From Escherichia coli (GTDB lineage: Bacteria > Pseudomonadota > Gammaproteobacteria > Enterobacterales > Enterobacteriaceae): 64,000 nucleotides of DNA. The translations under genes were made by a program, and so were the position numbers. Each line of letters starts with the position of its first letter. Position 1 is the stretch's first letter. Location of the stretch: NCBI RefSeq assembly GCF_030013595.1, contig NZ_CP122768.1; one strand, 5' to 3'. This document shows positions 12,045 to 15,849 of this stretch, in pieces. The notes beneath the pieces were generated by a model. That model was not told the DNA's origin. It did no database searches and saw nothing but the letters and a program-made list of their open reading frames with translations.

Positions 12045-12085
12045 ATCGTATAGCTTAACGTGTAGCTAAAAATGTTTGCTGCAAA
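12045..12085. repeat. Island-terminal repeat CGTATAGCTTAACGTGTAGCTAAAAA, matching the int-proximal end
   Basis: Near-identical to GTATAGCTAAACGTGTAGCTAAAAAA at about 22035-22060; candidate integrase arm-type sites. Confidence 0.5.
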
Positions 12086-12883: not shown

Positions 12884-13137
12884 GTTGACACTTTCCGGCT
12901 TAAGACCTTAACAAATCTTAACATCGCAGGTTGACACACTTGACACTTTTTCGCGAAAAACCTTATCAAACCTTAGCATTTCTAAGCATGGCAACTTGAC
13001 ACTTTTCGCGATTTTTTCGGCTTTTTGACGTGGTAAATCTGGCGCAAAGCCAGTAACGGCGGGGTTTACAGCGAGGTTGACACTTTTTCGCGTTCAGAGT
13101 GTAAAGTGTCAACCTGGCAAGCTGCTCAACTTGACAC
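12884..13137. repeat. Array of at least 7 copies of GGTTGACAC(TTTTTCGCG) in both orientations, interspersed with CTTA(A/G)CA short repeats
   Basis: Copies at about 12884, 12929, 12940, 12996, 13075, 13105 (inverted) and 13131; lies immediately downstream of the TerS-like gene. Confidence 0.6.
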
Positions 13138-13146
13138 TTTTTGAGG

Positions 13147-13674
13147 TCATTGATGGCCTGATTTTTCCCACTCAGCCAGGGCGTTTAGTCCGGCTTCACT
13201 CCAGTTATCCAGCTCATCGGGACAATCACCTGCAACATAGCAGAGCTCACAACGCAGCATACGAATTGCCAGCCTGGCATTTTCCCGAAAATCATACTGC
13301 TCAAAGTAATATTGCCCAGCATAATCCTCAAGGCAGATAGCACCATCATCAAGAAATTGCACTTCACAGCATAGTTCCCCGGCTGCATCCTGTACACGCT
13401 GCTGTATGTCATTGTCCGTTACTGGTGCAGGGATTTTACCGTCTCTGGCCTTAACTGCTTTCCAGAACTCGCCCCACGTCATTTCCAGCGTTCTCTCTGG
13501 CCACATTTCAGAAACGGTATCTTTTCCCTGTGCTGGTGGGCTGTTCCGCTGCTCTGTCGCTTCCACATCGATTTTTTTACCGGACATGACCACTTCGCCT
13601 TTCTCGATCCAGTCGTAAACTGTCTGGCGGCTTACGCCTTTGTGTTTGGCATATTCTGCCTTGCTCATAAACAT
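13147..13674 (-). CDS. Small terminase-like winged-HTH protein (Rpp-like packaging-redirection candidate)
   Basis: 175 aa; N-terminal MSKAEYAKHKGVSRQTVYDWIEKG resembles the Nu1/TerS-type HTH; acidic cysteine-containing C-terminus; GAGGGGA ribosome-binding site. Confidence 0.5.
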   Translation of the reverse strand: MFMSKAEYAKHKGVSRQTVYDWIEKGEVVMSGKKIDVEATEQRNSPPAQGKDTVSEMWPERTLEMTWGEFWKAVKARDGKIPAPVTDNDIQQRVQDAAGELCCEVQFLDDGAICLEDYAGQYYFEQYDFRENARLAIRMLRCELCYVAGDCPDELDNWSEAGLNALAEWEKSGHQ

Positions 13675-13844
13675 GACACTTCCCCTCAGACTGTATTAAT
13701 GCGCCGGAAAGCGCGTGTATTTAAATCATCCCAGGAACCGTTGAGCACCAATTAGTTGCGCGAAGTAATCGGCACCAGCGTTCCGAACAATTTCCAACTT
13801 AACGTTCTGATCATTGTTTCCTGCTGCAGGGACAATCCCACGAT

Positions 13845-14498
13845 TCATAGCCAGCGCCCGGATATTTCTTCCAGTTTTTCCAGAGCTGGCTTGCAGGCCG
13901 CATCAATAACTTCACGGACCATTCCGGCGAGCTGTTCTTCTTCTGTCGGCGTTGTTACTTCCACACCTGATGGTTTCCCGCCCTTATCCCATACGCCCAA
14001 CGGTACGAGCGCAACGTGATCGATAAGAAATGGCGTACCCTCAATGAAAAAATTGTCCTCGCCCATTACATCAGGAACTTCTGCCCCACCGGACGCACCA
14101 CAAAACACAACCGACGGGCTGGTGGATACCTCCCCCCGTGCTTTCTGGATGTAATCGATGATTTCCTGCCCGTAAATCCGGCATACGCCCCACACCTCGT
14201 CACCGCGAATATACGGCAACATGACGGTGCCAATAATGCGCGACCGTTCGCCCACGTCTTCAAGGGTTTTGCTTTCGGGATGGTCGATAATGACGGGTAC
14301 TCCGGCGCAACGTTCCAGGAACTGCGGATTGAGATAAGTTTGCGGTGAACGCCAGACAAATTCTTTTTCTTCGGCGCGATAGGCCATTCCGGTTCCTGTG
14401 ATACGCAGGTTAATCAGCCACATGTTGGAAAACTGATAAGGCGACGGTAGCTGACCGTCCCGAATCTGCTTTGCCGCCTCAATTTCTGTTAAAAGCAT
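13845..14498 (-). CDS. Hypothetical protein (217 aa), island cargo of unknown function
   Basis: ORF in the same transcriptional orientation as the packaging module; no motif I can assign. Confidence 0.5.
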   Translation of the reverse strand: MLLTEIEAAKQIRDGQLPSPYQFSNMWLINLRITGTGMAYRAEEKEFVWRSPQTYLNPQFLERCAGVPVIIDHPESKTLEDVGERSRIIGTVMLPYIRGDEVWGVCRIYGQEIIDYIQKARGEVSTSPSVVFCGASGGAEVPDVMGEDNFFIEGTPFLIDHVALVPLGVWDKGGKPSGVEVTTPTEEEQLAGMVREVIDAACKPALEKLEEISGRWL

Positions 14499-14562
14499 AA
14501 TGTCCCCCGGTTATAAGCAATAAGCCCCACCAAATCCGGCAGGGCTGAAATCAGCACGTTTT

Positions 14563-15156
14563 TCATGCCCCCGCGAGGCTTGCAACGTTAATTTTAACCA
14601 GGCGACGGGGAGGGATTTTGAAAGCACTAAGCCAGTTATTCGGATCCCCCTGATATTCAGTAATCCGCCGTCCGGCTTCATCCATTCTTACGGTTTTACG
14701 CAAATAGCCCGGCGTATTTTCCACAGCCCACTGAACACTGTCTTTTGCAGCCTGGTAAATCTGATCTTCCAGCACCGCCAGCGTTGCAGAATCTGAAACG
14801 GAACGAATATCCACATCACTGAATTTTTTAGCCAGCTTCTGTGCACCAATTAATGCACGCTTGCGGTAATCCATCGACTTTTCACCAGCAAACGGGGCTG
14901 GAGCGCGACGGCCCATATTGCTGTATGCGGAATCCGCTTTAGCCTGGGCTTCTGCCAGTGAGGATTCATCTTCGACTGACGCGACGATGTTTTTATTCGC
15001 GTCATCCTCGTCCGCTTTTGTGAAATCCTGTGCGGGGATCGCATTCAGAATTTCGATAATCTCCTGCGGAGTGCTGCCCTGCGACTCTGACAGAGCGTTA
15101 ACCACCTCCATCAGTTTTAATCGCAAATCTTCTTTGCTTGCTGGCATTTTTACCAC
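14563..15156 (-). CDS. Hypothetical protein (197 aa), acidic and Ala/Lys-rich, predicted largely helical
   Basis: ORF adjacent to the 217-aa ORF; composition resembles scaffold or decoration-like proteins, but this is unverified. Confidence 0.5.
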   Translation of the reverse strand: MVKMPASKEDLRLKLMEVVNALSESQGSTPQEIIEILNAIPAQDFTKADEDDANKNIVASVEDESSLAEAQAKADSAYSNMGRRAPAPFAGEKSMDYRKRALIGAQKLAKKFSDVDIRSVSDSATLAVLEDQIYQAAKDSVQWAVENTPGYLRKTVRMDEAGRRITEYQGDPNNWLSAFKIPPRRLVKINVASLAGA

Positions 15157-15186
15157 CTCTCTTTTTTCACCAAAAAATCACGACCA

Positions 15187-15366
15187 TCAGGCCGGACGTT
15201 CTACGGGATAAAGCGCCCGCTGCATTAAACGCCGGGCGACCTCATGAATGCTCGGAGCAATCCCCAGCGGAGAATTGCGGCGTTCCTCGTCCTGGATGCG
15301 CTGTAATGCTTCAATCTGATCACGAGCGAGTAAAACGGGTTTCACGCTGGCTTTTCTCATAGTCAT
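15187..15366 (-). CDS. Hypothetical small basic protein (59 aa), possible DNA-binding regulator
   Basis: AGGAG ribosome-binding site upstream of ATGACTATG; first gene after tandem terminators, so it probably heads its own transcription unit. Confidence 0.4.
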   Translation of the reverse strand: MTMRKASVKPVLLARDQIEALQRIQDEERRNSPLGIAPSIHEVARRLMQRALYPVERPA

Positions 15367-15489
15367 ATCTCCTGAACAAAACAATGATTATGATTGCACA
15401 AACTGAAATAACGATCTACATCATTGCAATTTATGAAACAATAACGCATGATGATCGCGTTCTTCCCATTGACTTCAATCACCTGAAAA

Positions 15490-15560
15490 ACAAAGCCCGC
15501 AACACTTCTGGCTGCGGGTTTTTTACTGGCACAAAAAAGCCGGGAAAAATCCCGGCCTCC
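15490..15560 (-). terminator. Tandem rho-independent terminators downstream of the PerC-like gene
   Basis: Two hairpins (GCCGGGA...TCCCGGC and CCCGCA...TGCGGG), each followed by a T-run on the minus strand. Confidence 0.55.
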
Positions 15561-15561
15561 G

Positions 15562-15849
15562 TCACTGACTGCAATTTTTCGATCCAGGGTATTTCCTGAA
15601 TGCCTTACCATTGGGCTGATGTAATCCCATCCCGGCATGTGCCCGGCTGATGGTTTCGCGCATTTCCCCGAAATTATCCTGCCTTGCTGGTGGGCGTGCT
15701 GCCTTGCGGATACATTCCGCGCGACGTTTTGCCGCCTGTTCCCGTGCCTTGTCATCATTCGCCAGCATGATGACCTCAGCCCACCGCGCCGCCGCTCTCC
15801 GGTACAGACCACGCGCTTCCAGTGCTTCCGCTTTGCTGTCGTGAATCAT
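15562..15849 (-). CDS. PerC-family transcriptional regulator-like protein
   Basis: 95 aa; N-terminus MIHDSKAEALEARGLYRRAAARW matches my memory of the PerC/Pch family; GGAGAA ribosome-binding site; 4-nt overlap with the upstream gene. Confidence 0.55.
   Translation of the reverse strand: MIHDSKAEALEARGLYRRAAARWAEVIMLANDDKAREQAAKRRAECIRKAARPPARQDNFGEMRETISRAHAGMGLHQPNGKAFRKYPGSKNCSQ

Follow-up and report, generated by a model that had tools for sequence, protein, structure and literature searches.

The locus analyzed here raises the question of what three small genes, placed upstream of a terminase-like gene in a phage satellite, do for the element that carries them. They belong to an island of the phage-inducible chromosomal island (PICI) type within a 64,000-nucleotide stretch of Escherichia coli DNA (contig NZ_CP122768.1 of assembly GCF_030013595.1; hereafter the window), and form open reading frames (ORFs) of 217 aa (13845-14498), 197 aa (14563-15156) and 59 aa (15187-15366), all on the minus strand. 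An earlier note on this DNA had described them as cargo without an assignable motif, at a site where accessory immune functions might be expected. Our computational analysis instead identifies the two larger ones as morphogenesis genes descended from a helper phage protease-scaffold gene. They very probably encode a protease and a procapsid-binding or scaffold protein that both derive from the helper, and comparative sequence evidence makes it reasonably probable that the unit as a whole is a helper-derived head-morphogenesis module that intervenes in helper procapsid assembly.

A predicted capsid maturation protease

The 217-aa protein is, by its predicted fold, a stand-alone capsid (prohead) maturation protease of the DUF2213 family, with an assemblin/T4 gp21-like fold and predicted catalytic activity. 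A motif can thus be assigned where the earlier note had seen none: residues 39-168 match Pfam DUF2213 (PF09979; i-Evalue 4e-6, score 27.3), and identical proteins in RefSeq are labeled "DUF2213 domain-containing". The protein also aligns with phrog_6216 (E 2e-79, profile positions 115-315) and weakly with the head maturation protease family phrog_530. Its model shows the characteristic assemblin-like protease fold, at 9-16% identity to the T4 gp21 and herpesvirus assemblin proteases, which differ from it in belonging to another Pfam family than DUF2213 and in giving no profile-level match. Because a profile built from the protease-only alignment retrieved nothing among PDB sequences, the protease assignment rests on fold, not on sequence; the full-alignment profile retrieved only NUDIX entries from the same set, owing to a domain fused in distant homologues.

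Residue conservation suggests that the protease is likely catalytically competent. Among 16-26 island and phage homologues, His73, Ser125 and Ser127 (within a Ser125-Thr-Ser127 motif), Glu153 and Asp160 are invariant, and His161 is retained in at least 90%. Downstream of the protease domain, the helix at residues 186-216 corresponds by homology to the first post-protease helix of a fused phage protein (hhalign E 9e-6), and the C-terminal domain of that phage protein is missing. The usual form of the island protein is 223 aa long. The window ORF is slightly clipped, its last ~7 codons having been swapped at a deletion junction, such that it ends in "ISGRWL" and a stop codon, compared to "ISGRL(A/D)QLEK.." in the usual form.

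A scaffold-like protein with the C-terminal domain of the same phage protein

The 197-aa ORF begins with a GTG, and its real start is probably the ATG at 15147, which follows GAGAGGTGG, is the RefSeq start in identical islands, and yields a product of 194 aa. By domain homology, this is a scaffold-like protein carrying the C-terminal domain of the phage fusion protein, in which an island-specific helical N-terminus (residues ~1-40) and a short acidic linker precede the C-terminal domain (~60-194). Residues 50-190 match phrog_6216 positions 405-544 (E 8e-47), and the protein of phage Rac-SA53 shares 64% identity at its C-terminus with residues 63-191.

The 194-aa protein further displays traits typical of scaffolds, being acidic (pI 5.2), largely helical, and devoid of an enzymatic domain. 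An AlphaFold2 model is mostly helical with one beta-hairpin, at a pLDDT of ~90 over residues 60-140. The earlier description of an acidic, Ala/Lys-rich and probably helical protein holds for its charge, its alanine content (14%) and its helicity; lysine, however, accounts for only 7% of residues. The scaffold or capsid-interacting role guessed at the time fits the homology of the C-terminal 130 residues to a phage head-module protein. We infer from gene position and architecture that this C-terminal domain is the procapsid-binding (scaffold or targeting) part.

Neither a Pfam match nor a specific structural fold match was obtained for the 194-aa protein. RefSeq names the corresponding 192-194-aa proteins "NUDIX hydrolase", an identity we rejected since no NUDIX match was found and since the name stems from longer phage fusions with an N-terminal NUDIX domain. 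Protease and fusion homologues are likewise named "TolA", "glycosyl transferase" or "IF-2" in databases, domains that are absent from the island proteins, and the database names of both families thus appear to be mis-propagated.

One phage gene, two island genes

Both island proteins map onto phrog_6216 and onto single genes in 14 phage records, among them Escherichia Rac-SA53, Klebsiella Chronis, RothC and RothD, Pantoea PdC23, and Yersinia vB_YenM phages. Only fused versions were found in the phage collection (n = 14), some with an additional N-terminal NUDIX domain. In Rac-SA53 and Chronis, genes are ordered as terminase, portal, MuF-like head morphogenesis protein, fusion gene, phrog_6268 and major head protein, and this position between portal and major capsid genes is typical for prohead proteases and internal scaffolds, whereas the island copy is located in the packaging operon. 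The order is also reversed in the island, with the scaffold-like gene first and the protease gene second. The best reading of these alignments is that the pair descends from a single gene of Rac-SA53-type myoviruses, encoding a protease and a C-terminal domain, which would now exist in two pieces.

Fused or nested protease-scaffold genes are found at this genome position in lambda (C/Nu3), Mu (I/Z) and P2 (gpO). The phage relative resembles them in that one reading frame, within the portal-capsid interval, encodes both the protease and the C-terminal assembly domain. It shows no sequence homology to the lambda, Mu and P2 proteins, and the island has two separate genes, scaffold-like then protease. 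An in-frame ATG behind a Shine-Dalgarno-like sequence lies just past the protease domain in Rac-SA53 and in the distant Chronis, and it is plausible that these phages too could make a separate scaffold-type product.

Searched as a profile against a library of 1.84 billion proteins, the C-terminal domain yielded 2213 clusters and was always located at the extreme C-terminus. Among the best 147 representatives, 75 carried protease motifs and were mostly longer than 350 aa, and 51 (201-350 aa) consisted of a Lys/Ala/Glu-rich coiled coil followed by the domain, without protease motifs. DUF2213 and NUDIX were the only recurrent Pfam partners. Tandem duplication followed by reciprocal truncation would yield the gene order of the island; this is only an idea, and its sole test was not significant (hhalign E 0.064).

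Retention of the pair across related islands

The three ORFs listed in the earlier note proved to be real genes, as indicated by lengths conserved across genera and ratios of non-synonymous to synonymous substitution rates (dN/dS) of 0-0.24. Between pairs of five islands, dN/dS ranged from 0 to 0.125 in the 217-aa gene and from 0.13 to 0.24 in the 194-aa gene. Homologues whose length is preserved were found in Escherichia, Salmonella, Citrobacter, Enterobacter, Pantoea and Klebsiella; in the five genera other than Escherichia, the split architecture (221-229 aa plus 187-199 aa) is still seen where identity has dropped to 56-60%. On this substitution and conservation evidence, the pair is functional and under purifying selection across enterobacterial genera.

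The comparison of related islands proposed in the earlier note showed that the stretch from the 57-aa form of the small gene to the TerS-like gene (hereafter the slot) takes four arrangements, three of which contain the pair. The scaffold-like and protease genes stand alone in 10 of the 17 IMG/VR loci, as well as in L004, L006 and L007. In L008, L018, L020, L021 and L029, the pair is accompanied by a 205-aa tail gene (82% identical to that of the candidate helper prophage) and a 679-aa SLT/tape-measure-like gene (49%), the 205-aa protein being tail-chaperone-like. L019 and L022 contain the pair with a baseplate-hub-like gene and a small gene, and L009 and L010 hold a single unrelated 90-aa gene. 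In L019 (6152-7524) and L022, both from IMG/VR, the baseplate-hub-like gene (phrog_196) and the small phrog_8737 gene come after the protease, which indicates that satellites of this family carry tail-tip as well as head genes.

The helper-type virion genes in these variants (tail chaperone-like, SLT/tape-measure-like and baseplate-hub-like) give the impression that such islands habitually take along spare or variant parts of the virion. They would also suit a supplementing role, in which additional protease and scaffold would speed or secure head production, and may widen the helper range or offset limiting late proteins, with capsid size unchanged. There is a precedent in EcCICFT073, an island with capsid- and decoration-like genes and no change of size (PMC6092414). 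However, the helper already makes both proteins in the right ratio, and the 194-aa protein, with an N-terminus specific to the island and a shorter linker, points to altered function and not to a mere extra supply; we consider supplementation decidedly unlikely.

The window island is itself a 2614-bp deletion derivative of an extended island of the STEC005 type (L008), having lost the 205-aa tail gene entirely and the SLT gene for the most part. Window positions 13139-13863 align to L008 4662-5386, and 13851-15600 to L008 8001-9744. The 3' relic of the 679-aa SLT/tape-measure-like gene, including the deletion junction (13851-13863), spans 13726-13863 on the minus strand, where a 40-aa ORF (13726-13848) corresponds to the tail end of the SLT gene and matches the C-terminus of the 679-aa protein of L008 at 98%. 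The extended-type and deletion loci are found at L008:5249-7970 and L093:2818-3072. A different deletion of the same tail genes is present in ETEC6335, so that these genes have been lost at least twice while the pair was kept.

Proximity to a deletion scar and a relic ORF, and the existence of mosaic contigs such as L030, could suggest that the pair in the window is itself a passive, non-functional remnant of recombination with a helper prophage. Yet the reading frames are intact and preceded by good ribosome-binding sites, dN/dS ranges from 0 to 0.24, lengths and gene order are kept across genera down to 56% identity, and the pair was retained through two independent neighboring deletions, all of which makes a remnant highly improbable. 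In L030, a 58-kb IMG/VR contig (4531-8764), SLT and baseplate-hub genes lead into an island-type module of 57-aa, 190-aa and 225-aa genes, after which come a genuine TerS (phrog_370) and a major capsid gene truncated at its 5' end; judging from this gene content, the contig appears to be a mosaic or recombinant of satellite and phage.

Relatives of the island also differ in variable, non-virion genes of defense type, including a SIR2 protein with its partner, a DUF3800 protein and SieB, which lie 3' of the TerS-like gene (L009:1758-4476, L006:5411-6603 and L004:6010-6555). No such genes occur 3' of the TerS-like gene in the window's island. PICIs are known carriers of defense systems, and a role as abortive-infection effector is conceivable for a protease. 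The earlier expectation of immune functions at this locus nonetheless found no support: recognizable defense genes of relatives (SIR2, SieB) sit elsewhere, namely 3' of the TerS-like gene, PADLOC returned no match for any of the three proteins and neither did NCBIfam, and both larger proteins are homologous to a head-assembly gene. Anti-phage immunity cargo is, in our estimate, the least credible explanation of the unit.

A satellite island and its candidate helper

The element holding the three ORFs is an island of ~10 kb between the core genes yejO (autotransporter) and tRNA-Pro proL/yejM, and the window outside it is ordinary chromosome. It is bracketed by two 26-nt direct repeats (12047-12072 and 22028-22053; 25/26 identical, 9981 bp apart), which probably serve as its attachment sites; the one on the right is located outside tRNA-Pro itself, in the interval that separates it from the integrase gene. 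Island genes include an integrase (phrog_1, E 2e-73), an AlpA-like regulator (phrog_66, E 6e-9), a RepA-type helicase (phrog_2850), a ProQ/FinO-like protein, a PerC-family regulator and the TerS-like gene, and no capsid, tail or lysis genes were identified within the island. As judged from gene content, size and attachment repeats, the island is a PICI-type phage satellite with the gene layout described for such elements (PMC6092414, PMC10085698), in agreement with the satellite at proL that the earlier note had recognized. The module itself is found in islands with differing integrases and insertion sites, including proL (the window), abgR-smrA, tRNA-Gly, and sites near dinD and near pao.

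Several lines of evidence designate Rac-SA53-type temperate myoviruses as the probable helpers of this satellite. Across 5426 complete E. coli genomes, the module is present in 33 and Rac-SA53-type head genes in 80. At least 19 of the 33 module-bearing genomes carry both, compared to ~0.5 expected (hypergeometric P ~1e-27), an overlap counted over the 79 listed of 87 phage-positive genomes and a P value that treats strains as independent and ignores their shared ancestry. In IMG/VR, where the scan for relatives returned close relatives only, five genomes combined an island-sized module contig with a 26-50-kb contig carrying the phage version. In ETEC6335, an island occupies the site used in the window and its module is 99.9% identical; this genome also contains a Rac-SA53-type prophage whose tail sheath gene identifies it as a myovirus. 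Similarity between satellite and candidate helper extends from the tail gene of extended islands, 82% identical to that of the prophage, to the pair itself, at 54-64% identity to the helper protein.

This degree of identity is close enough for competition and would equally suit a decoy, in which the 194-aa protein blocks scaffold or protease docking sites on the helper capsid protein, leaving helper shells devoid of the fused helper protease, and the untargeted 217-aa protease cleaves head proteins early, such that the helper burst is lowered and no new capsid is formed. A protease uncoupled from its targeting domain is what a dominant-negative pair would look like, and helper interference is common among satellites (PMC6739421, PMC6092414). 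However, satellite transfer needs mature helper shells, and the strict conservation of the His, Ser and acidic residues, along with a protease dN/dS near 0, suggests a precise job and not mere damage. On balance, we regard a decoy as unlikely.

Candidate helpers and islands show two further features. Toxin genes adjoin the lysis genes of the candidate helpers, with LT-IIa in Rac-SA53 (L005:1-1172) and, in the ETEC6335 prophage (L001:1210-2350), a scabin-related ADP-ribosyltransferase accompanied by an AB5 B subunit. In several genomes (cq9, L003:198-1650; STEC005, STEC719, ETEC1732 and RM9088), the island is inserted at abgR-smrA, 8-45 kb from a Rac-type prophage at ttcA. This prophage carries related head genes, so that satellite and candidate helper are near neighbors on the chromosome in those genomes.

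Organization of the operon

The unit is probably transcribed separately from the upstream PerC-family gene (stop at 15562), from which it is set apart by two tandem intrinsic terminators on the minus strand (15486-15560), directly 3' of that gene. Both consist of a hairpin and a U-run (~15533-15560, -18.3 kcal/mol, z -3.0; 15486-15518, -14.2 kcal/mol, z -2.4), which confirms the tandem terminators of the earlier note and fits the separate transcription unit it proposed. A promoter had been placed between 15367 and 15490, and this intergenic region 5' of the operon (minus strand) does contain a -10-like CATAAT identified by eye (15392-15387), with no accompanying -35, as well as a 7-bp inverted repeat (CAATGAT/ATCATTG at 15426-15420 and 15388-15382) and direct TGCAAT repeats spaced by 30 nt; a consensus scan of 15367-15490, however, yielded no sigma-70 promoter. 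From these motifs, a promoter of the activator-dependent type is plausible in this region. At 15443-15461, a weak hairpin is no more stable than those of shuffled sequence. The same was observed for a hairpin without a U-run between the scaffold-like and protease genes (14523-14546, minus strand; -16.9 kcal/mol, z -0.7), and we rejected this hairpin as an attenuator.

The operon begins with the small conserved ORF (15187-15366, minus strand), annotated as 59 aa and probably translated as 57 aa from its second ATG at 15360, which has better AGGAG spacing and is the RefSeq start. Remote-homology and structure comparisons of the kind recommended in the earlier note placed the 217-aa and 194-aa proteins and left the small ORF without a match in Pfam, PHROG, NCBIfam, PADLOC or PDB. 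Its homologues (54-60 aa) are found in Enterobacteriaceae, and it precedes every slot variant, including islands without the protease-scaffold pair. Across five islands, the small ORF (15187-15360) shows zero synonymous differences, compared to a dS of 0.05-0.16 in adjacent genes, for which a recent sweep of a constant region and nucleotide-level constraint are both possible causes. A pattern of a short strand followed by two helices recalls ribbon-helix-helix regulators, although this is only an impression.

The last gene of the unit, as the earlier note had it, is the TerS-like gene (13147-13674, minus strand), which follows the protease gene in all variants and starts 6 nt after the protease stop in compact relatives, a spacing that fits a single operon with the TerS-like gene last. 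Its 175-aa product has an N-terminal helix-turn-helix and matches the terminase small subunit family phrog_57 over residues 1-42 only (E 5e-7). No match to the TerS of the candidate helper was found, and phmmer detected no similarity to RppC or any other chain, up to E 1, among all PDB chains, a set expected to contain the RppC structure of PMC6739421. Rpp proteins are also shorter, at 144-153 aa. The term "packaging-redirection gene" used in the earlier note therefore stands by analogy only and, resembling neither RppC nor the helper TerS, the 175-aa protein may represent a separate family of packaging-redirection proteins. Just 3' of this gene, 12913-13146 contains 3-4 copies of TTGACACTTTTT(CGCG) within 39-nt imperfect repeats, a candidate packaging-recognition site for the TerS-like protein.

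A proposed role in helper procapsid assembly

The reading we favor, a head-morphogenesis module taken from the helper, suggests the following course of events. Upon induction, the operon would be switched on from its activator-dependent promoter. The 194-aa protein would then compete with, or replace, the helper protease-scaffold on the helper major capsid protein, serving as an alternative internal scaffold. The free protease, having kept the first post-protease helix, would be co-assembled and would clear the scaffold to allow shell maturation, and the TerS-like protein would steer satellite DNA into these shells. Since protease, scaffold-like and TerS-like proteins are all that the island encodes for this purpose, the satellite must use the capsid protein and portal of its helper. 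That the pair acts on helper procapsid assembly to the benefit of the satellite seems fairly probable to us. The shorter scaffold may further specify smaller capsids that exclude the ~50-kb helper genome, and with islands of 10-13 kb and a candidate helper of 45-52 kb, size redirection as seen with SaPI1 (CpmB) or P4 would make sense; as the actual outcome, we consider it possible but doubtful.

Several observations weigh against this interpretation. In EcCICFT073, the E. coli PICI that has been studied best, deletion of c1499 (capsid-like) or c1500 (decoration-like) did not restore normal lambda plaques, and packaging of the island takes place in capsids of phage size (PMC6092414, PMC6739421). 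For the protease, the catalytic residues are mapped by conservation only, and no solved protease was matched by a sequence profile. For the scaffold-like protein, the C-terminal domain matches neither a Pfam family nor a characterized scaffold, its proposed scaffold or procapsid-binding role being based on gene position, composition and architecture, and the N-terminus did not qualify as a copy of the phage post-protease helix in the alignment mentioned above, which covered 13 columns. With respect to the helper, a full copy of the candidate was not seen in at least 14 of the 33 module-bearing genomes, and the co-occurrence statistics carry the limits given with them, including 8 unlisted genomes of 87. 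Finally, a single unrelated 90-aa gene suffices in related islands, such that the island family can do without the pair.

Relation to known satellites and significance

Satellites with diverged copies of helper head genes are already known, including those encoding Ccm and CpmB and the capsid-forming PICIs (cf-PICIs), and capsid morphogenesis is one of the components considered by SatelliteFinder (PMC10085698). A close parallel to the 194-aa protein is CpmB, the internal scaffold of the staphylococcal pathogenicity island SaPI1, which acts with CpmA, is helical, has a C-terminus resembling that of the helper scaffold, and competes for the capsid protein (PMC5644958); CpmB is likewise encoded in an operon ending with a satellite small-terminase-type gene. 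Unlike the 194-aa protein, which is 64% identical to the helper over 130 residues and paired with a protease, CpmB is 72 aa long and has no companion protease. Small capsids, as formed with SaPI1, are for the window island a possibility only. SaPIbov5 Ccm and P4 Sid also redirect helper capsid size, and Ccm likewise diverged from a head gene of its helper (PMC8569155, PMC7552001), but Ccm is a capsid-protein homologue and Sid an external scaffold, neither of them a protease or an internal scaffold homologue as in the window pair.

Among elements of Gram-negative hosts, cf-PICIs resemble the window island in being enterobacterial, in having the same kind of left arm, and in encoding phage-derived head proteins that include a prohead protease (10.1101/2022.09.08.507074; PMC10085698), and differ from it by encoding a complete set of head functions (capsid, portal, head-tail connectors and TerL). 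EcCICFT073 is likewise an E. coli PICI with homologues of helper head genes and a packaging-redirection gene, that of RppA (PMC6092414, PMC6739421); these homologues are, however, of capsid and decoration proteins and not of a protease and a scaffold, and its helpers are lambda-like siphoviruses. In the literature, we found no description of a DUF2213 protease paired with a split scaffold domain, nor of such a myovirus as a PICI helper.

The genes with which PICIs of Gram-negative bacteria manipulate helper capsids are largely unknown, and for the small-capsid island PmCI172 the responsible genes were left unidentified in the describing paper (PMC6092414). The pair described here provides two named candidates with a clear evolutionary origin, along with a specific candidate helper that is a myovirus and not a lambda-like phage. 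It also corrects misleading names ("NUDIX hydrolase", "TolA" and "glycosyl transferase") in a family with thousands of members, and defines a previously unnamed C-terminal domain that accompanies DUF2213 proteases.

A bolder and rather speculative version, which we would not presently expect to be correct, is that the module represents a way of hijacking capsids not described before among satellites of Gram-negative bacteria. The fused gene of the helper would have been divided into a shortened scaffold of the island's own and a protease no longer tethered to it, which together would build shells of satellite size from the capsid protein of toxin-converting, Rac-SA53-type myoviruses, with sister islands remodeling the tail through their own tape-measure/SLT or baseplate-hub genes. 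If true, satellites would remodel both virion ends of a contractile-tailed helper and modulate the spread of LT-II/AB5 toxin phages in livestock E. coli. More generally, the candidate helpers carry enterotoxin genes (for LT-IIa, or for an ADP-ribosyltransferase plus AB5 B subunit), and a satellite parasitizing them could influence the mobility of toxin genes in livestock-associated E. coli.

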